IMG/VR virus record: IMGVR_UViG_2851933302_000002
Location: 1-41,286 of that record
Reading direction: 5' to 3' (one strand)
DNA length: 41,286 bases
From: a virus
Lineage: Duplodnaviria > Heunggongvirae > Uroviricota > Caudoviricetes
The position numbers were made by a program, and so were the translations under genes. Position 1 is the stretch's first letter. Each line of letters opens with the position of its first letter. The notes beneath the pieces were generated by a model. It saw only the letters and a program-made list of their open reading frames with translations, was not told the DNA's origin and searched no databases. This document shows, one piece after another, positions 1,422 to 20,885 of the stretch.

Positions 1422-3893
1422 TTAAAAATCAGCCTGATTCGGGATCAGTTTTTGCCAGATAGCTGAAACGTATTTTGCCTGGTAACGGGCATCATCCAGC
1501 GCATTGTGGCGCTCACCTTCGAATGGGATAGCAGTTCTGGCATCGAAGTCTACGGCTTTCCCCAGCTCAACGATTGTGCGTACATCGCGATCGTTGCAGT
1601 AGCGCCACGGGCAGGGGATACCCTGTCGTTCGTATGAACGGCGCAAAATCGTGTTGTCGAAGTTGGCCCCATTACCCCAGACCTGAACAAAAAACTCACC
1701 GGAGTTTTCGTCGATAAATTCCCGCAATTGCAGTAGTGCATCATCTAACGGGATTTCATCGGTCATAATGGCAGACTGCGCTTCACGTGATTGCTTCAGC
1801 CACCATTTAATGACGTCACGATCAATGACTCCGCCAGCAGTATCCAGATCGATGGTCTTGCTAAATTCTGGTCCCATATCTCCGGTTTGCGGATCGAAAA
1901 ATATTGCGCCTATTGAGATAATCGGGGCATCGGGATTTTTTCCCATGGTTTCAAGGTCGATCATCAGATGAATCCCCGCTCTGCTGGTGGATGTGAGATT
2001 ATGATGACTGTTCGCCTTAATTAAGGGATCTGACGCCTCGCCAGTTTCACTATCGCTGGCATGATGCTGATTGCCGCCAGTGTTCTCCTTGTGCTGATGT
2101 GCAGTACCTTCCATTTCCTCCGGATCATTTTCCTGAACTTCAGGCTGATTCTCTTCATCGAATATTTCCTGGTATGTTGCGTCGCCCATCACCGCGCCAC
2201 AATCAGGGCAGTTGCCGCCGCCGGTCTGACCGCAGGCGGTGCAGACTTTTTCCGGTTCCTGTTGCGCCACTGGTTCAGGCTGTTTCGTTTCTGGCTCGTT
2301 TTGTAACGCATTTGGGCTGTTTTGTTCCGCTTTCTGGTCGTTCTGTTCCGTTTCTTGCTGGTTCTGGTTCACAGAATCGCGGGTTTCAATCCCCTTCACC
2401 CATTTCGGATCATTCGGGTCGCTAATCCCTGCAACAAATTCACCACGTGATGCGGCGAGCAACTGATTGGCGTCAGGCTGGCTGATATTGGCTGCCTGCA
2501 TAATTTTCTTTACTTCGTCAGCGGTAACTTTTACCGGTTCTGGTTGTTCAGAATTTTGTGCGGTATTTGCATTTTGCGGTAAGCCTGTGTATGTGCCATT
2601 TTTTCGGGCAAAATATTCTTCTTTTGTGATTTCAGTAGCCCCGGCAGCCAGCGCCTTATCCAGACCAGAAAGTTTGTTTGCGCGACCGTATTTTTCGCAA
2701 TCCTTGTCGGTGAAGAAGAAGTAGAACGGCCCCTCACGCTCTACAGATGGTTCGACTTCCACTTTGCATTCGGTTTTTTCGTTGTCCGGAATTGCCGTTT
2801 CCACTGCATCAGTTTCTGGTACTGGCGACGAGAGAGTGTCAGTTGCGCTCTGATTTGTTCCTTCATCTTCAAACACGCCCTTTGTAGTCAGGTATTCAGT
2901 AATGTATTTGTTCAGTGCCACAGGGTCTTTGTGAATGTCGATCGGACGTTCACGGACAAGGCCAAAAATAGTCTGGCGGTCGTAGCGAAGGGCATCAGGC
3001 TGTTTGCGCATTGATGCCGAGATACTCTTCCAGTCTTCGCGGTCGTTGTCGATAACTTCATTTTTTGCCCAGCGATGGATGCTGCCGTCAATGTTTCCGG
3101 CATCCACATCACCAGGCCAGAGAGCGTAGGCCAGTTCGTCATCCAGTGTTTTCCATGTCTGCTTATATTCGCGACGAATGACTGCAGTGACAGGGGGGAT
3201 TTTTTCTGCTGAGTTTTCAGTGTGCTGTCGGTGGACTCTGGCGCGGGCGAGATCAACAACAGACGTGTATTTTCCGGTTTCCTTGCGTTCACCTTCGCGA
3301 CGTTTTTTCCAGATGCGCATCTCTGCCTGAATTTCGGGCCATTTGGCACCAGGCTTACATTTATGCTTAACCCACCCGATGGCATGCAGCTTAAGCTCCG
3401 GATACATGGCGTTAACTTCTGGCATTTTCATCAACGCTTCAACGATATGTCCGTCGAATGTTGCCATGTCTTCCTGCAACAATTCCTGCGCGCTAATCAC
3501 CATATCAACGGTGATGTTTTCACATGTGTCGAACTTAACCATGACAGCGTTCTGTACTTCAGGGGCCAGCTTGTCAAAAGCGACGTTCATCGGATCTGAT
3601 TCAGTCTCAACCGGGACAAAGGAAGTAGCCCCCTCATCCCAGCGGTTTTCCTGCATATATTCAGCATCCCATGAATCGAGGGCAGGGCGGGGTATACCGG
3701 GTTTATCCTCGCAAACAAGAAATTTATAAGCGCAGTCCTGAGCAGCCGGATAATGCTCCAGGAATTGCCAGTGAAATTTTGCGCGGGCGCGACGTTCATC
3801 ACCGGCTTCAATGGCAGTGGCTACAGCGACTGCACCTTCTTCCTTTATTGCCTGTTCGTCCGGAATGGCGGCGCAAATAAAGACTTTACTCAT
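1422..3893 (-). CDS. Large phage exonuclease with C-terminal DnaQ-like DEDDh 3'-5' exonuclease domain and internal zinc ribbon
   Basis: 823-aa ORF. C-terminal DEDDh motifs are visible: Exo I (IDLET), Exo II (NGANFDNTIL), Exo III (HNALDDARYQ). A central CTACG...CPDCG zinc ribbon is flanked by Q/E/N-rich low-complexity linker. Sits where exo/recE genes lie in lambdoid prophages; no recT/bet partner is seen. Confidence 0.75.
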   Translation of the reverse strand: MSKVFICAAIPDEQAIKEEGAVAVATAIEAGDERRARAKFHWQFLEHYPAAQDCAYKFLVCEDKPGIPRPALDSWDAEYMQENRWDEGATSFVPVETESDPMNVAFDKLAPEVQNAVMVKFDTCENITVDMVISAQELLQEDMATFDGHIVEALMKMPEVNAMYPELKLHAIGWVKHKCKPGAKWPEIQAEMRIWKKRREGERKETGKYTSVVDLARARVHRQHTENSAEKIPPVTAVIRREYKQTWKTLDDELAYALWPGDVDAGNIDGSIHRWAKNEVIDNDREDWKSISASMRKQPDALRYDRQTIFGLVRERPIDIHKDPVALNKYITEYLTTKGVFEDEGTNQSATDTLSSPVPETDAVETAIPDNEKTECKVEVEPSVEREGPFYFFFTDKDCEKYGRANKLSGLDKALAAGATEITKEEYFARKNGTYTGLPQNANTAQNSEQPEPVKVTADEVKKIMQAANISQPDANQLLAASRGEFVAGISDPNDPKWVKGIETRDSVNQNQQETEQNDQKAEQNSPNALQNEPETKQPEPVAQQEPEKVCTACGQTGGGNCPDCGAVMGDATYQEIFDEENQPEVQENDPEEMEGTAHQHKENTGGNQHHASDSETGEASDPLIKANSHHNLTSTSRAGIHLMIDLETMGKNPDAPIISIGAIFFDPQTGDMGPEFSKTIDLDTAGGVIDRDVIKWWLKQSREAQSAIMTDEIPLDDALLQLREFIDENSGEFFVQVWGNGANFDNTILRRSYERQGIPCPWRYCNDRDVRTIVELGKAVDFDARTAIPFEGERHNALDDARYQAKYVSAIWQKLIPNQADF

Positions 3894-4362: not shown

Positions 4363-4911
4363 TATCGCGTCCTCAACAATGAATTTTGTGATGCGGTGCC
4401 TGGTGCCTCCAGGTGACGTTAACCAGTTAACAATTAACGCCGGATACAGAGAATCCACCCATAACACTGTTTTTGGTTTTAACTGTTCCGCGTGCGCTTA
4501 GCCGCATTCACTGCATCACAAAATTCACTTTAAAAAGGGTGGCAGAGCAGTCACGGAGTAGAACTGATGCCACCAAAGACTACACATGGATATTGTGGCG
4601 GGGCTGTCACTTAAGCGTATGGTCAGCCTGACAACCCGGTGTCCTCAAGGGGAAGGAATAACCCCGCCATACTTACCGCCGCGCCATTTCGCGGATTGCC
4701 ACAACCGGAAGCGCACGGTCGAATTAAATTTAACGACAAAGTACAGAGAGACGAGCTTCTCCGTGTGCTTTCGCGTTATGCTCTGACTTTTCAGAGAAAT
4801 ATCCTTTCAGTAAACTGTCAGTGCCGGATGTTCACCCGTGTCCGGCGCACGCACTCCACTTCACCCGTGGAGAACTCCTTAATTACCAACCTTAGCTTCG
4901 TTGGTTAGCTA

Positions 4912-7042: not shown

Positions 7043-8020
7043 GTGTTCGGGGGGGTTATGAGCAGCAAGCTTCATGGTCTTGTCTGGGAAGGGTGCGCCT
7101 TCACCGGCATGATCTTATCCAGGGTGGCGGTTATGGCCCGTCTTGCAGACTACAGCAATGACGAGGGCGTGTCATGGCCTGCCATTGAAACTATCCGGCG
7201 TCAGATCGGTGCAAGAAGTGAATCCACAGTGAAATCGGCTATTGCAGAACTGGCGAAAGAGGGCTGGCTGACGAAGGAAGAGCGTAAGGTCGGTGGGCGT
7301 AATGTAAGCAATATCTATCGGCTTAATGTGGAAAAACTCGAAGCAGCTGCGGCGGCGGCGCGTGAGTCATATAAACCGAAAAGAAAAATTAGCCCGGCAA
7401 AAAATGACCCGTTAACAGTTGACCCGTCAAATATTGACCCCTCAACGGTTGACCCGTCAAATTTTGATGGATCAACTGTTGATAAAAAACTGCCGATTAG
7501 GGGGGCGATGATTGACCCCGATCCGTCAGTATTAAAACCTGATCCGTCAGATAAAAGATCTTCTTGTCCGGACGCTTCGCAACCGGACCCGCAGACGGCT
7601 GAACAGGATTTTTTAACCCGACACCCTGACGCGGTTGTGTTCAGTGCGAAAAAACGCCAGTGGGGAAGTCAGGAAGATTTGGTGTGCGCACAGTGGATCT
7701 GGGGACGAATCGTGAGTCTTTACGAGCAGGCGGCCAGCTATGATGGCGAGATCACTAGACCGAAAGAACCCAACTGGACAGCATGGGCCAATGACGTTCG
7801 CACAATGCGGATGCTGGATGGCAGAACTCACAGACAAATTTGTGAAATGTTTGGGCGTCTCCAGCGGGATTCGTTCTGGGTAAAAAACATCATGAGTCCG
7901 GCAAAACTCCGGGAAAAATGGGATGAACTGGTTATCCGCCTGGGGCGTTCGCCTGCGCAGCGTTGCGTGAATCACATTTCTGAACCGGACACTGAAATAC
8001 CGCCGGGATTCAGGGGGTGA
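7043..8020 (+). CDS. Replication initiation protein (O-like, N-terminal winged helix) with internal iteron-like repeats
   Basis: 325-aa ORF with an N-terminal HTH-like segment. The coding sequence holds 12-bp direct repeats (TTGACCCGTCAA type, 7404-7460) and GATCCGTCAG repeats (7520-7550), as in a lambda-type ori inside O. Followed by a DnaC-like gene. Confidence 0.75.
   Translation: MFGGVMSSKLHGLVWEGCAFTGMILSRVAVMARLADYSNDEGVSWPAIETIRRQIGARSESTVKSAIAELAKEGWLTKEERKVGGRNVSNIYRLNVEKLEAAAAAARESYKPKRKISPAKNDPLTVDPSNIDPSTVDPSNFDGSTVDKKLPIRGAMIDPDPSVLKPDPSDKRSSCPDASQPDPQTAEQDFLTRHPDAVVFSAKKRQWGSQEDLVCAQWIWGRIVSLYEQAASYDGEITRPKEPNWTAWANDVRTMRMLDGRTHRQICEMFGRLQRDSFWVKNIMSPAKLREKWDELVIRLGRSPAQRCVNHISEPDTEIPPGFRG
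7404..7550 (+). repeat. Candidate replication origin iterons inside the initiator gene
   Basis: Four copies of (A/T)TGACCC(G/C)T(T/C)AA at 15-bp spacing (7404-7415, 7419-7430, 7434-7445, 7449-7460), then an A-rich stretch and two GATCCGTCAG copies (7520-7529, 7541-7550). Confidence 0.55.
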
Positions 8021-10846: not shown

Positions 10847-11083
10847 TTTTATGGATCACCTTTCTGATTGATTTCATATTGGCGAGGTGACGTGAGTTAA
10901 GTAGAATGGCTGCGGGTGCTTGAGGCTATCTGTCTCAGGCATGAACACTGAAAGGCAGATAGAGAAAAGCCCCAGTTAACATTTCGCGTCCTGCAAGACG
11001 CTTAACATTAATCTGAGGCCCAATCTATGTCTCACAAATGTAGGTTAGCCTCTTACGTGCCGAAAGGCAAGGGGAAGCAGGCT

Positions 11084-11239
11084 ATGAAGCAGCAAAAGGC
11101 GATGTTAATCGCCCTGATCGTCATCTGTTTAACCGTCATAGTGACGGCACTGGTAACGAGGAAAGACCTCTGCGAGGTACGAATCCGAACCGGCCAGACG
11201 GAGGTCGCTGTCTTCACAGCTTACGAACCTGAGGAGTAA
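11084..11239 (+). CDS. hok: Hok/Gef-family type I toxin (HokD/RelF-like)
   Basis: 51-aa peptide MKQQKAMLIALIVICLTVIVTALVTRKDLCEVRIRTGQTEVAVFTAYEPEE, matching my recollection of HokD. Structured leader upstream (10860-11080) would hold mok/sok elements. Terminator follows at 11310-11337. Confidence 0.9.
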   Translation: MKQQKAMLIALIVICLTVIVTALVTRKDLCEVRIRTGQTEVAVFTAYEPEE

Positions 11240-15449: not shown

Positions 15450-15525
15450 GGCCCTTTAGCTCAGTGGTGAGAGCGAGCGACTCATAATCGCCAGGTCGCT
15501 GGTTCAAATCCAGCAAGGGCCACCA
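15450..15525 (+). tRNA. ileZ: tRNA with anticodon CAT (Ile2/Met type; ileZ-like)
   Basis: 76-nt cloverleaf. Acceptor stem GGCCCTT/AAGGGCC, anticodon CAT at 15483-15485, T-loop GGTTCAAATCC, 3' CCA. Confidence 0.85.
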
Positions 15526-15532
15526 TCACATA

Positions 15533-15609
15533 CCGCCATTAGCTCATCAGGAAAGAGCGCCAGCTTTCGAAGCTGGTTGCGCGGAGTTCGGGTCCCCGAA
15601 GGCGGTCCA
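15533..15609 (+). tRNA. argN: tRNA-Arg (anticodon TCG; argN-like)
   Basis: 77-nt candidate. Anticodon stem CCAGC/GCTGG with loop TTTCGAA (anticodon TCG), 3' CCA. One mismatch in the acceptor stem and one in the T-stem. Confidence 0.7.
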
Positions 15610-15622
15610 TTATCTGTATCCT

Positions 15623-15699
15623 GCGTTGTTAGCTCAGCCGGACAGAGCAATTGCCTTCTAAGCAATCGGTCACTGGTTCGAATCCAGTACAACGCGCCA
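15623..15699 (+). tRNA. argO: tRNA-Arg (anticodon TCT; argO-like)
   Basis: 77-nt cloverleaf. Acceptor GCGTTGT/ACAACGC, anticodon loop CTTCTAA (TCT), T-loop GGTTCGAATCC, 3' CCA. Confidence 0.85.
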
Positions 15700-15743: not shown

Positions 15744-15960
15744 CTCACAATTCAGGCGGTTGACTGTTGTCTGGTTTGCGGGGAGTTTGTTAAAAGAAAC
15801 TGGCATGGTGAATCCCCCTGTGCGGAGGGGCAATCAGCGAGTAGGTATATGGGATAATCGCGGATTCAGGTGCTGGTACTGAATTCACCGGGAGGCACCC
15901 GGCACCATGCAATGGCACATAGCGCCACTCTCCAGCCCCTCTCCGGAGGGGCTTTTCTGT
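15744..15960 (+). repeat. Structured repeat unit, copy A (promoter-like TTGACT plus hairpins plus terminator)
   Basis: Shares blocks with copy B: CTCACAATTCAG..GTTGAC, GCATGGTGAATCCCCCTG.GCGGAGGGGC, CACCGGGAGGCACCCGGCACCATG, and the terminator hairpin AGCCCCTCTCCGGAGGGGCT followed by T-run. Confidence 0.6.
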
Positions 15961-16147
15961 GCCGGATACATCACAGTTTCTGGAACCTTAGGTACTACAG
16001 TATCAGTCAGGGTGCTATATTTTCAGATGTGATGAAAGCCTGTCAGCAGGCAGGGCGTATCGGAAATGACCCAGTAGAGAAAACGTTGACTCAGATACCG
16101 GTGCTGAGTTACCGGGAAACCGGCATCACATGACCGCTATCCTTCCA

Positions 16148-16211: not shown

Positions 16212-16446
16212 CTCACAATTCAGTAAGTTGACAGTTGCCTGTCAGACTGGGCATTTGTTAAAAAAATTTCGCATGGTGAATCCCCCTGAGCGGAGGGGCG
16301 ACTGGTGACGGTATAATCTCTGATTATCAAAACGAGAATGACGCGGGTTTAGTGGCACCGGGCTGAACTCACCGGGAGGCACCCGGCACCATGTGCATGA
16401 TGATACAGATACGCGGCTTTAGCCCCTCTCCGGAGGGGCTTTCTTA
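16212..16446 (+). repeat. Structured repeat unit, copy B
   Basis: Second tandem copy of the copy A element. Contains TTGACA, a perfect TATAAT at about 16309-16314, the same GC hairpins and the AGCCCCTCTCCGGAGGGGCT terminator hairpin. Confidence 0.6.
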
Positions 16447-16451
16447 TGGAC

Positions 16452-18527: not shown

Positions 18528-18612
18528 AAAGTGAGCCAGCCAAATGGAAGGTATCGTTAAACTCACCGGTAGTGTCAGTGGGTCGTCTGAGATGCCTGCA
18601 TGAGTTATCAGA

Positions 18613-18643
18613 GCCATCAGTACTTAACTGGTGGCTTTTTTTA
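18613..18643 (+). terminator. Terminator-like hairpin after nanS-p
   Basis: GCCATCAG-TACTTAA-CTGGTGGC hairpin (one G-T pair) followed by T8. Confidence 0.5.
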
Positions 18644-18677
18644 TTGTTGTCAGCTTCCGGATAACGGGAGACGGGGT

Positions 18678-18893
18678 ATGTACCAGATGGAAAAAATCAC
18701 AACAGGTGTGTCATACACCACGTCAGCGGTGGGAACGGGCTACTGGTTCCTGCAGTTGCTGGACAGGGTTTCCCCGTCTCAGTGGGCGGCAATAGGCGTG
18801 CTGGGGAGTCTGCTGTTTGGGCTGCTGACATATCTGACTAACCTGTATTTCAAAATCAGAGAGGACCGTCGTAAGGCTGCACGGGGAGAGTAA
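18678..18893 (+). CDS. S: Holin, phage 21 S-type pinholin with dual start
   Basis: 71-aa product [13 protein letters not shown]...[36 protein letters not shown], near-identical in its C-terminal two-thirds to my recollection of S21. Dual-start Mets at 18678 and 18687. Confidence 0.85.
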
Positions 18894-18897
18894 TTCA

Positions 18898-19242
18898 ATG
18901 ACTCAAAACTATGAACTGATTGTGAAAGGGATCCGCAATTTTGAGAATAAAGTTACGGTAACTTTAGCGTTACGGGACAAAAAACGCTTTGACGGTGAAA
19001 TTTTTGACCTGGACATCTCGCTGGACCGTGTTGAAGGTGCCTCGCTGGAGTTTTATGAGGCAGCAGCCAGAAGGAGCATCAGACAGGTCTTCCTGGATGT
19101 TGCTGCCGGGTTATGTGAAGGGGATGAGCAGTCGCCGGAAAAGCGCCCCGTAATTTTAGAGGCGCAGGATGTGTTGATAACCTACAGAGGAAAACTACCG
19201 GGAATAATTACGGGTTCTCTGAAGAGTCCGCCGAAATGGTAA
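18898..19242 (+). CDS. Hypothetical protein inserted between holin and endolysin
   Basis: 114-aa ORF starting 5 nt after the holin stop, with SD GGAGAG. No recognisable family. Confidence 0.5.
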   Translation: MTQNYELIVKGIRNFENKVTVTLALRDKKRFDGEIFDLDISLDRVEGASLEFYEAAARRSIRQVFLDVAAGLCEGDEQSPEKRPVILEAQDVLITYRGKLPGIITGSLKSPPKW

Positions 19243-19480
19243 TTTTACCAGCATATTTTTCATCCAGTAATACAGCAAGCCGCCTGAAAGAGTCTTGTTG
19301 TTCCTGAGACCATTTGGGATTGCATGATTCAAACTGGATTGATGCCAGCGTTGATTGCATCTGTTCCCTTGGAATTGAGAATGCCAGATATGAGAAGGCG
19401 ACGGTAAGGGTATTCACGTCTTCCCGAAGCCTGGAAATGCTGTCGAGCAACTCCTGTAGAGAAATGGTGTTATTGTCCAT
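19208..19480 (-). CDS. Hypothetical protein, antisense to the late operon
   Basis: 90-aa ORF on the opposite strand with SD GAGGA. Its 3' end overlaps the 3' end of the 114-aa gene by 35 nt. A 7-bp-stem hairpin lies in its upstream region (19513-19534). Confidence 0.5.
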   Translation of the reverse strand: MDNNTISLQELLDSISRLREDVNTLTVAFSYLAFSIPREQMQSTLASIQFESCNPKWSQEQQDSFRRLAVLLDEKYAGKITISADSSENP

Positions 19481-19585: not shown

Positions 19586-20119
19586 ATGAACGCAAAAATC
19601 AGATACGGCCTGTCGGCTGCCGTTCTGGCGCTGATTGCCGCTGGTGCGCCTGCGCCTGACATTCTCGACCAGTTTCTGGATGAAAAGGAAGGTAACCACA
19701 CCACGGCATACCGTGATGGCGCGGGTATCTGGACCATCTGCCGCGGTGCCATCCTGGTGGATGGCAAACCTGTCGTTCCGGGCATGAAGTTGTCGAAGGA
19801 AAAATGCGACCGGGTTAACGCCATTGAGCGTGATAAGGCGCTGGCATGGGTGGAGAAAAACATCAGAGTGCCATTGAGTGAACCCCAGAAAGCGGGGATC
19901 GCGTCATTCTGTCCGTACAACATTGGTCCCGGTAAGTGTTTCCCGTCGACGTTTTATAAACGAATTAATGCAGGTGATCGCAGGGGAGCGTGTGAGGCGA
20001 TTCGCTGGTGGATTAAGGACGGTGGCAGAGACTGCCGTGTCCGCTCAAATAACTGTTATGGTCAGGTATCCCGTCGTGACCAGGAGAGCGCGCTGGCGTG
20101 CTGGGGAATCGACAGATAA
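19586..20119 (+). CDS. R: SAR endolysin (phage 21 R-type lysozyme with N-terminal signal-anchor-release domain)
   Basis: 177-aa ORF. N-terminal hydrophobic Ala/Gly-rich SAR segment (LSAAVLALIAAGAPA) followed by a lysozyme core (E...D...T) resembling R21. Confidence 0.85.
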   Translation: MNAKIRYGLSAAVLALIAAGAPAPDILDQFLDEKEGNHTTAYRDGAGIWTICRGAILVDGKPVVPGMKLSKEKCDRVNAIERDKALAWVEKNIRVPLSEPQKAGIASFCPYNIGPGKCFPSTFYKRINAGDRRGACEAIRWWIKDGGRDCRVRSNNCYGQVSRRDQESALACWGIDR

Positions 20120-20213
20120 GCAGAATATTTTGCTGAAAAATAAGGTATGGCCACGCGGGCGGATAACACGAAATCCTGCGAACTGGCGAAACGTAAGTGA
20201 ATAAAAGTAAAAA

Positions 20214-20249
20214 CCCCGTTTGTTGGCACCAAGCGGGGTTTTGTGTTTC
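20214..20249 (+). terminator. Terminator-like hairpin between endolysin and downstream small ORF
   Basis: CCCCG...TTGG-CA-CCAA...CGGGG hairpin followed by TTTTGTGTTT. Confidence 0.5.
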
Positions 20250-20278
20250 CTGACTCCGGAAAAGTCAAAGGAGAAAGT

Positions 20279-20416
20279 GTGTTTGATTTTAGCAAACTGA
20301 TTCGGGAGATTCGAGTGATGGCTGAAAAATTATCCACCTGGAAGTTCATTCTTATCTGGCTGGTGTTTGTGATTATGGCCTCCGGTTATTTCATCGGTCA
20401 GATACGCTGGTGGTGA
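20279..20416 (+). CDS. Small single-pass membrane peptide between R and Rz
   Basis: 45-aa ORF from GTG at 20279 with SD AAGGAG at 5-nt spacing; an in-frame ATG at 20318 gives a 32-aa version. Hydrophobic core [20 protein letters not shown]. Stop lies 1 nt before the Rz start. Not in the ORF track (under 60 aa). Confidence 0.35.
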
Positions 20417-20417
20417 A

Positions 20418-20885
20418 ATGAACCGCGTACTGTGCGTGGTCATCATTGCCCTGCTGGTGGCCTGTGGTGCGCTTAGTCTGGGGCTGAATCATTACCGTGA
20501 TAACGCCATTACCTACAAAGCCCAGCGCGACAAAAATGTCAGAGAACTGAAGCTGGCGAACGCGGCAATTACTGACATGCAGATGCGTCAGCGTGATGTT
20601 GCTGCGCTCGATGCAAAATACACGAAGGAGTTAGCTGATGCGAAAGCTGAAAATGAAACTCTTCGCGCTGACGTTGCCGCTGGTCGTAAGCGCCTGCGTA
20701 TCAACGCCACCTGTCCAGGTCCCGTGCGTGAAGCCACCGGCACCGCCCGCGTGGATAATGCAACCGGCCCCCAACTGGCAGACACCGTTACACGGGATTA
20801 TTTCACCCTCAGAGAGCGGCTGATGACGATGCAGAAGCAACTGGAAGGGGCGCAGGAATATATCCGTACTCAGTGCCTGAAATAA
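20418..20885 (+). CDS. Rz: Spanin, inner membrane subunit (Rz)
   Basis: 155-aa ORF with an N-terminal transmembrane segment and a coiled-coil periplasmic domain. Sequence closely resembles lambda Rz. Confidence 0.85.
20638..20823 (+). CDS. Rz1: Spanin, outer membrane lipoprotein subunit (Rz1), embedded in Rz +1 frame
   Basis: 61-aa ORF inside Rz in another frame. Lipobox-like LVVSAC followed by a proline-rich mature part. Confidence 0.85.

Follow-up and report, generated by a model that had tools for sequence, protein, structure and literature searches.

A mobile cassette for a 45-residue membrane peptide with a predicted cis-antisense RNA in the endolysin–spanin gap of a temperate phage

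Introduction

Between the endolysin gene R and the inner-membrane spanin (i-spanin) gene Rz of a caudoviricete phage (IMG/VR record IMGVR_UViG_2851933302_000002, positions 1 to 41,286; this whole 41,286-nt stretch is called the window below) lies a gene for a 45-residue, apparently single-pass membrane peptide. Here we describe this gene together with two hairpins in its leader (SL1 and SL2) and a predicted antisense RNA, and we suggest, with some preference over the alternatives, that they make up a promoterless unit resembling a toxin–antitoxin (TA) system of type I.

The closest described systems are the small type I TA loci. Like the toxins of Ibs/Sib, Ldr/Rdl, TisB/IstR-1, ShoB/OhsC, ZorO/OrzO and Hok/Sok, the peptide has fewer than 60 residues and a single transmembrane (TM) helix, and like those loci the cassette shows a sequestered Shine–Dalgarno (SD) sequence, a predicted antisense RNA with a Rho-independent terminator, and carriage on mobile DNA. 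Unlike them, it has no sequence similarity to these toxins, its TM helix is C-terminal behind a conserved basic helix of 20 residues, and it is a promoterless insert co-directional with the genes of phage late operons. Induction of the Shiga toxin (Stx) 2 prophage Sp5 also induces its hokW-sokW locus, which raises phage release twofold (PMC8621323). A prophage type I toxin that rises on induction and aids lysis and release is, by analogy, what the cassette may encode; hokW, in contrast, is a member of the Hok family with a promoter of its own and a location outside the lysis cassette. In symE/SymR of Escherichia coli, the open reading frame (ORF) of symE contains the promoter for SymR (PMC1891008). 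The present locus would share with it an antisense promoter within the opening codons of its target ORF, a short antisense RNA over the ribosome-binding site and repression at several levels. SymE, however, is a 113-residue cytoplasmic AbrB-fold protein made from its own LexA-controlled promoter, whereas the cassette encodes a membrane peptide without a promoter of its own, its antisense terminator coincides with the 5' limit of a mobile unit, and its antisense RNA is a prediction.

Two further comparisons come from phage biology. A moron of the classical kind lies between an upstream promoter and a downstream terminator, and lysogens express it; one product of such a gene is HK97 gp15, a small exclusion protein of the inner membrane encoded among tail genes. 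As in lambdoid morons of this kind, a small membrane-protein gene has been inserted among late genes and has moved between unrelated phages, and the extra DNA between otherwise adjacent genes that is characteristic of morons is found here as well (Qin rrrQ/rzpQ; alternative cargo in 933W and Sakai). Unlike a moron, the cassette has its terminator upstream, no sense promoter was found for it, and its stop codon lies 1 nt from the Rz ATG. In the holin genes S of lambda and S21 of phage 21, a structure-directed initiation (sdi) hairpin and dual starts control translation. The cassette likewise places a hairpin at the ribosome-binding site of a small lysis-cassette membrane protein, possibly with two starts whose products differ in N-terminal charge; its peptide, unlike S and S21, is not homologous to holins, and its internal start is inferred.

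Our literature search found nothing on the peptide, on a small gene between R and Rz or on an antisense RNA at this site. So far the gene is listed just as a hypothetical protein (PHROG 6632). Its architecture seems to be undescribed: the terminator leads, a hairpin hides the SD, the start codon is not AUG, and a predicted antisense promoter lies within the gene.

Results

A conserved gene for a small membrane peptide

The gap between R and Rz measures 297 nt (endolysin stop codon at 20117–20119, Rz ATG at 20418). It contains the following elements of the cassette.

20201–20242: SL1, an A-tract plus GC-rich hairpin (stem-loop 20210–20242), left end of the cassette
20246–20274, plus strand: SL2, UUUCC-UGACU...AGUCA-AA-GGAGA, from minimum-free-energy folds of the window and 36 relatives
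20268–20273, plus strand: SD sequence AAGGAG, 5 nt before the GTG and equally spaced in relatives
20279–20416, plus strand: peptide gene of 45 codons, GTG start at 20279–20281, stop at 20414–20416
20304–20320, plus strand: possible internal start, GGGAG (20304–20308), nine nucleotides, then the ATG of codon 14 (20318–20320)
20286–20314, minus strand: predicted antisense promoter, inside codons 3–12 of the peptide gene
20203–20280, minus strand: predicted cis-antisense small RNA of about 75 nt, from promoter geometry and terminator

A preliminary description of this gap, made from the letters alone, had reported a hairpin with a T-run behind the endolysin stop, an AAGGAG followed by a GTG-started ORF of 45 residues ending 1 nt before Rz, an internal ATG leaving 32 residues, and a single hydrophobic helix. 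All of these are present (hairpin at 20210–20242; internal ATG at codon 14, 20318). TM prediction by the Kyte–Doolittle scale places the hydrophobic stretch at residues 23–42 (nt 20345–20404), with a 19-residue mean above 2.0, and AlphaFold2 models one helix over residues 4–44 (predicted local distance difference test score, pLDDT, 86). The flank on the N-terminal side of the TM helix holds five Lys or Arg residues, which points to an N-in orientation. Across the family we observed the same architecture, namely a conserved basic N-terminal helix of ~20 residues that includes a conserved motif, a C-terminal TM helix and a short tail that often reads G-Q-I-R-W-W. Modelled in this way, the peptide would be a single-pass, N-in membrane protein with a short periplasmic end, ...IRWW.

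The peptide matches phrog_6632 over its full length (E 1.2e-29; residues 1–45 on profile positions 1–45 of 45). A profile search of 1.84 billion representatives (cut-off E ≤ 1e-3) returned 41 cluster representatives, and profile, tblastn and locus searches together gathered ~57 distinct peptides from phages and prophages of E. coli, Salmonella, Citrobacter, Edwardsiella, Yersinia, Serratia, Brenneria, Sodalis, Providencia and Pseudomonas, the homologues from Pseudomonas phages being up to 50% identical. The start codon is GTG or TTG, non-AUG in nearly all family members, and the stop codon lies 1 nt from the Rz ATG in the window and 1–4 nt from the spanin start in relatives. The 3' end of the peptide gene, TGG TGG TGA, contributes an SD-like GGTGGTGA ahead of the Rz ATG, by which translation of Rz may be coupled to that of the peptide. 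Of 5,426 complete E. coli genomes, 870 carry a match to a 341-nt query (window 20100–20440) at ≥80% coverage; H-19B and many Stx1a, Stx2c and Stx2a phages have the region as well. Sequence searches of Pfam, NCBIfam, PADLOC and PDB gave no match to the peptide, and neither Pfam nor NCBIfam placed it in a holin family.

Quantification of sequence change over 46 distinct 45-codon ORFs revealed a median ratio of nonsynonymous to synonymous substitution (dN/dS) of 0.167 and entropies of 0.71, 0.28 and 0.94 at codon positions 1, 2 and 3; the peptide frame is open in all 46, and the remaining five frames have stops in most or all. The preliminary description had held that lack of conservation, with third-position variation inconsistent with coding, would speak against the gene; the ORF is instead kept in relatives with substitutions of the coding type. 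It might still be argued that there is no gene here and that a chance ORF lies in the spacer behind the R terminator, as the gene usually goes unannotated in GenBank and RefSeq records (RefSeq lists the peptide as WP_000459345.1, 'hypothetical protein', and in CP-1639 it is a 'putative bacteriophage protein') and as the terminator-like hairpin on its own is within chance expectation. Against such an argument stand the dN/dS value, the single frame that is open throughout, the full-length PHROG match and the 50%-identity homologues in Pseudomonas phages, and we count it as already refuted, with a vanishingly small chance left to it. That the gene and the cassette are real we regard as practically certain.

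Frozen synonymous sites mark a predicted antisense promoter

Third-position entropy is about zero for most of codons 1–12, versus 1.5–2.0 for codons 24–43. The following positions illustrate this.

Asp3: GAT in 44 of 46, never GAC
Residue 4: TTT, ATT or CTT, never NTC (for comparison, Phe23: TTC 27, TTT 19)
Ser5: AGC in 45 of 46
Glu10: GAG in 44 of 46 (for comparison, Glu16: GAA 24, GAG 15)
Arg12: CGA in 46 of 46 (for comparison, Arg43: CGC 20, CGT 17, CGG 3, CGA 5, AGA 1)

On the minus strand these bases form the pattern TGnTA(A/T/G)(A)AT, at a fixed offset. In the window this is the extended -10 element TGCTAAAAT (20294–20286, codons 3–6), and in relatives it varies to TGCTAATAT or TGCTAAGAT. 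The pattern TGnTAnnnT occurs at the same offset in ~40 of 53 distinct 5' regions, those of Pseudomonas included, and the hexamer TAAGAT is kept where the residues differ, as in members of the ESYIKF type. A -35-like TCGAAT (20314–20309; TCGCAA in others) falls in codons 11–12, separated from the -10 by a 17-nt spacer, and the span of synonymous constraint, codons 1–12, matches the footprint of this predicted promoter. Among the folds of the window and of relatives we saw no conserved sense-strand element, such as an mRNA hairpin, that would explain the frozen codons. We propose, from the sequence, that the frozen synonymous sites mark a predicted antisense promoter. A first candidate elsewhere on the minus strand, CTGACC-18-CATAAT (20401–20372), was dropped because its -10 is not conserved in Salmonella FSL SP-016.

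The RNA predicted from this promoter would have its 5' end at ~20280, opposite the start codon, span the SD and SL2, and end in the U-tract after SL1, which lies ~40 nt downstream of the predicted start. It folds as a 5' hairpin plus terminator (-23.2 kcal/mol; z = -3.2). Such an RNA would explain the constant, short spacing between a bidirectional terminator and the gene downstream of it. Taken together, the promoter pattern and terminator make it fairly likely that the antisense RNA exists. Neither the predicted antisense promoter nor the SD-sequestering hairpin figured in the preliminary description, whose interpretation is supported in part.

The same codons can be read in another way. If the peptide gene were a plain accessory late gene, that is, a moron-like insert for an ordinary late membrane protein with no antisense RNA, the frozen 5' codons would reflect the needs of translation initiation or an internal start. 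A purine-rich GGAG or GGGG at codons 9–10 does persist when residues RE change to KE, ME, QG or RG, and Met14 is nearly invariant, so that the two could form an internal ribosome-binding site and explain part of the constraint. Speculatively, the ATG at codon 14 may yield a 32-residue product without the charged N-terminus, and this product would escape cover by the predicted antisense RNA. An initiation effect, however, does not predict that the frozen bases build exactly a minus-strand TG-n-TA---T, and the TAAGAT of the -10 survives the residue changes of ESYIKF-type members. In addition, the sense hairpin at the window's start codon is apparently not conserved, since by inspection I2-type sequences cannot form it (the folds of relatives end 6 nt into the ORF and so do not probe this hairpin).

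Two hairpins in the leader covary

The SL1 stem-loop comprises 13 pairs, flanking A–U pairs included, and a 7-nt loop. On the plus strand it is followed by a T-tract (20239–20249, TTTTGTGTTT) and on the minus strand by TTTTTACTTTTATT (20213–20200), a tract also written UUUUUACUUUUAU; flanked by an A-tract on its 5' side and a T-tract on its 3' side, SL1 looks like a bidirectional intrinsic terminator. Its GC-rich stem-loop and U-tract have the form of a Rho-independent terminator, which is what we predict it to be. Three terminator-like hairpins were found in 3 kb where shuffles lead one to expect 3.1; the hairpin alone is thus no more than chance, and its significance rests on conservation, covariation and the coding signature. 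Wherever a simple hairpin finder detected SL1, tail and baseplate operons included, it stands 34–39 nt before the start codon, and RNAalifold on a MAFFT alignment revealed compensatory change in 9 of 11 pairs.

In SL2 the SD forms the 3' arm, and the distal end of the SL1 T-tract provides the outer 5' arm. The outer arms read UUUCC/GGAGA in the window and UUUCU/AGAA in others, and the inner stem covaries (CCTTG/CAAGG, TGACT/AGTCA, CGTTA/TAACG, CCTAT/ATAGG). The SD is paired in the fold of the window and in most single-sequence folds (36 distinct leaders). We suggest that the peptide mRNA is translationally restrained by its own fold, with the SD held in the covarying helix of SL2.

A covariance model built from SL1 and SL2 (R1) recognized one leader in the window (20201–20284, 77.9 bits) and 65 plus-strand sites in related loci. 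In its alignment 90.7% of the cells are paired, compared with 78.7% in shuffles, none of 500 of which reached the observed value; with sliding pair partners as a control, pairing was ≤60%. Pairing is 96% in helix 1 (SL1) and 84% in helix 2 (SL2), and both partners have changed in 9 of 12 and 8 of 10 pairs, respectively, so that 17 of the 22 pairs show compensatory double changes. Counts of G–U against A–C by strand lean to the plus strand for SL1 and to the minus strand for SL2; these depend on the alignment and were not used as evidence.

Rfam gave no match at gathering score between 19900 and 20600 (the best was the rimP leader, E 0.12, with 24.7 bits against a cutoff of 47), and a scan together with inspection found no sigma-70-like sense promoter in 20120–20278. 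An AATAAA/TATAAA just 5' of SL1 was considered as a sense promoter and rejected, as it lacks the -7 T and a -35; it more likely serves as the template for the U-tail of the predicted antisense RNA.

The hairpins also bear on the plain accessory gene, under which SL1 would be a terminator or an mRNA-stabilising hairpin at a recombination junction. Its favour is increased by the somewhat greater stability of SL1 on the sense strand (29 of 36 sequences), by the many unrelated contexts in which the insert is found and by the fact that it separates genes that overlap in cassette-less relatives; the fixed 34–39 nt between terminator and start codon is left unexplained. With the promoter-like pattern in the frozen codons also against it, we judge a plain accessory gene to be unlikely, while giving it serious weight.

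The cassette moves between lysis and structural operons

Homology between unrelated contexts begins ~12 nt 5' of SL1 and stops at the stop codon of the peptide gene. In the Qin prophage of K-12, which has no cassette, rrrQ and rzpQ overlap by 4 nt. 933W and the window are homologous from R up to the base of SL1 (~20213) and again from the start of Rz, and 933W carries ant and a different, unannotated small TM ORF in place of the hairpin and the peptide ORF. These homology breaks, the Qin overlap and the 933W replacement mark 20201–20416 as a discrete cassette and the R|Rz junction as a slot for cargo. Judged by homology, this segment is one copy of a mobile cassette made of SL1, SL2 and a GTG- or TTG-started gene for a predicted single-pass peptide.

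Annotation of the neighbouring genes in related loci with PHROGs revealed two habitats. In the first, the cassette stands between an endolysin gene and an i-spanin gene, with four unrelated endolysin families upstream (GH24 signal-arrest-release (SAR), phrog_181, phrog_873 and GH108/phrog_315) and five spanin families downstream (PF03245, phrog_1275, 1026, 214 and 312), in at least eight combinations. The second consists of structural operons, where it follows a lambda-like tail gene K, a major tail gene or TerL, or lies between baseplate protein and wedge genes (phrog_120, phrog_43; SEN34, Yersinia, Serratia). Adjacent lysis or structural genes are co-directional with the cassette in the loci examined, and some downstream accessory genes are convergent, for example a Bro-N gene after tail gene K. 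The hairpin that the preliminary description named as a terminator behind the endolysin stop is more than that, as it travels as the 5' end of the cassette, including into tail and baseplate operons with no endolysin nearby.

Swapped partners and non-lysis contexts argue against dependence on any one holin, endolysin or spanin. Its recurrence between endolysin and spanin genes nevertheless deserves notice, and it is this position that lends weight to the idea of a dedicated lysis component, be it an antiholin, a holin helper, a spanin regulator or a 'releasin' of SAR endolysins, that acts on S21, R or Rz. Such a component would fit the recurrence of the cassette directly between endolysin and i-spanin genes despite the swapping of families, the 1–4 nt to the spanin start, a possible dual start that recalls holin/antiholin pairs, and the other small TM ORFs that fill the slot in 933W and Sakai (ECs_5741). 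It fits poorly with cassettes in tail or baseplate operons far from lysis genes (SEN34-like, Yersinia, Serratia, Pseudomonas) and with the absence of holin-family homology; many lambdoid phages, moreover, lyse without the cassette. Since it accompanies both SAR and apparently non-SAR endolysins (N-termini judged by eye) and at least five spanin families, a specific partner is unlikely, and we consider a dedicated lysis component improbable. The preliminary description had suggested a modulator of holin or spanin function or a small toxin. The position between endolysin and spanin genes agrees with the former, whose specific role goes unsupported with cassettes found outside lysis regions as well; the toxin gains the most support, from the sequestered SD, the non-AUG start, the conserved predicted antisense promoter and the terminator.

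Sites such as the K/I junction, beside Bro-N and other accessory genes, are classic moron slots, and they raise the thought that the peptide or the antisense RNA shields lysogens or infected cells against other phages, in superinfection exclusion or defence. HK97 gp15 is a precedent for the peptide. For the RNA, a precedent is STnc6030 of BTP1, an antisense RNA that acts against late genes and excludes related phages (PMC7067206). The cassette, however, offers no sense promoter for expression in the lysogen, SL1 would block read-through, PADLOC gave no matches, and the predicted antisense RNA spans its own 75-nt leader alone and so could exclude only phages that bear the cassette. Exclusion or defence is, in our estimation, a quite remote prospect.

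Further leader copies and other small TM ORFs

The SL1–SL2 leader occurs in 2–4 copies per contig in some environmental phage contigs. Two contigs carry the following copies, and further leader-bearing environmental contigs are L191, L193, L195 and L189.

Contig L194: 2717–2799, 2967–3049, 3406–3488 and 5812–5895
Contig L190: 1483–1566, 2420–2505 and 3123–3207

Most copies precede different small ORFs with a C-terminal TM segment, several of which end in ...RWW or ...LPWD. With varied TM ORFs behind it, the leader appears to be a reusable head for a wider cassette superfamily.

In 933W-type phages, another single-TM ORF, MISDKLITLVKSLCVLVGISFLVMLVAIFFSTAWRVLTLSGLVG, stands directly before Rz and after ant. 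It was located at the following places.

933W (L008): 4436–4570
Sakai Sp15 (L196): 7749–7895, minus strand
L007: 3138–3269

This ORF is unannotated in 933W and is the 'hypothetical' ECs_5741 in Sakai Sp15; its peptide had no match in NCBIfam or PADLOC. In phiSTEC1589-Stx1c, an ORF of this type follows the phrog_6632 homologue in tandem. With ECs_5741-type ORFs and phrog_6632 both found before Rz, the slot has been filled repeatedly by small membrane peptides. Salmonella FSL SP-016 (L003, 2386–2502) has a hydrophobic ORF of 38 residues directly after the endolysin gene, and Pseudomonas phage YMC11/02/R656 (L005, 3171–3287) has a 38-residue ORF, MNAKDAGIVGKRLANAALILATGVAIASIIAAIGVVLG, directly after its peptide homologue; the latter is similar to an ORF that follows a further copy of the leader in L194. 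In a Yersinia-type baseplate operon (L133–L135, ~3489–3626 and ~3746–3892), the peptide gene is present in tandem copies. Here copy 1 has lost its start codon, and copy 2 has a new, ATG-started N-terminus and neither the leader nor the antisense -10, and may be a 'domesticated' version of the gene.

The lysis region of the window

By the ORF list and Pfam, the window contains a lysis region of the phage 21/Stx type, laid out as follows.

18678–18893: S21-type holin, a separate gene from that of the 45-residue peptide
18898–19242, plus strand: YdfR/DUF1327 gene
19208–19480, minus strand: gene for 90 residues, phrog_2411, convergent, its 3' end overlapping the YdfR/DUF1327 gene
19586–20119, plus strand: SAR-type (R21-like) lysozyme R (Pfam Phage_lysozyme, E 1.2e-23; RefSeq 'lysozyme')
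20120–20200: post-R spacer of ~80 nt, outside the mobile cassette by BLAST and alignments
20418–20885, plus strand: i-spanin Rz (Pfam Phage_lysis, E 4e-51; ORF list)
20638–20823: outer-membrane spanin (o-spanin) Rz1, embedded within Rz

The two extra genes between holin and lysozyme indicate that the S|R junction of the lysis cassette is interrupted too. The post-R spacer is shared with CP-1639, phiSTEC1589, Salmonella FSL SP-016 and also 933W, which lacks the cassette, and contains the conserved stretches …AGAATATTTTGCTGAAAAAT…GGATAACACGAAATCCTGC…; we found no ORF or promoter in it and, in a five-sequence RNAalifold analysis, no covariation support. Two other ORFs at this site were rejected. 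One of 17 residues at 20148 is not conserved, 933W lacking its ATG, and one of 95 residues on the minus strand (20062–20349), annotated in CP-1639, has no PHROG match and is interrupted by stops in 31–46 of 46 homologues.

Upstream of the holin, the gap behind a SASA/sialate esterase gene (18528–18677) holds a strong terminator-like hairpin on the plus strand (18610–18638) and no Rfam match. In many prophages this position is occupied by Pas small RNAs (pasA, pasC), according to a 2026 preprint; small RNAs of the Pas/AgvB type map upstream of the holin and not at the R|Rz site. Elsewhere in the window, Rfam matches at gathering score are two STnc100 copies, a sok antitoxin RNA, DicF and three tRNAs, the last standing upstream of the esterase gene. 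Their coordinates are given below.

15774–15964
16242–16451
10914–11089: the sok match, distinct from the R|Rz cassette
4537–4588, minus strand
15450–15696

The sok match implies that a hok/sok type I TA system is present in the window as well.

Discussion

We favour, at somewhat better than even confidence, the interpretation of the cassette as a promoterless, antisense-guarded, type I TA-like unit in the late operons of temperate phages, and we file it as a type I TA-like, cis-antisense-controlled small membrane peptide and not as a proven member of the class. In this model, without antitermination SL1 would halt unmodified RNA polymerase, any read-through mRNA would be closed to translation with its SD hidden in SL2, and the antisense RNA would pair with the ribosome-binding site of the peptide mRNA. 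Late in growth, Q-modified polymerase would pass SL1 and the mRNA would come to outnumber the antisense RNA. The peptide would then be made along with R and Rz, insert N-in into the inner membrane and probably perturb it as type I toxins do, favouring holin triggering and faster lysis. We put forward this role in lysis timing only tentatively.

Several observations weigh against a type I TA-like unit. The -35 of the predicted antisense promoter matches at 3 of 6 positions only, and some divergent members lack the TG or the entire -10 motif. The alignment derived from the covariance model is fitted to the modelled structure and leans towards it, and the greater stability of SL1 on the plus strand means that SL1 may serve mainly the sense strand. 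As no promoter for the peptide mRNA lies in the cassette, this is not an autonomous TA locus, and the peptide resembles neither the known type I toxins, holins and defence proteins nor any solved structure. Why a lysogen would need the antitoxin is unclear if SL1 already blocks the entry of polymerase, and in the baseplate operons of phages without known antitermination a plus-strand terminator would be polar, implying leaky termination.

In a wider and more doubtful version of the type I TA-like model, which we would back only as a speculation, the locus belongs to a superfamily of 'terminator-first', antisense-guarded cassettes with diverse C-terminal-TM toxins that time lysis or kill on unscheduled transcription, the 45- and 32-residue products forming an effector/inhibitor pair. 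Such cassettes would hop among endolysin|spanin, K|I and baseplate junctions of late operons in temperate phages ranging from Enterobacterales to Pseudomonas, in up to four copies per contig.

If the type I TA-like model is true, the cassette would represent a new layout of type I TA systems, in which the late promoter of the phage serves the toxin gene and the cassette brings only its own locks, namely the terminator, the SD-hiding hairpin and the antisense RNA. At the R|Rz junction, this cassette, ant and other small TM ORFs alternate as cargo. The cassette is common in E. coli genomes yet mostly unannotated, and with the covariance model and the peptide profile annotators can find such genes. 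It would also provide a testable handle on the tuning of lysis, and hence on the release of toxin and phage, including from Shiga-toxin phages.

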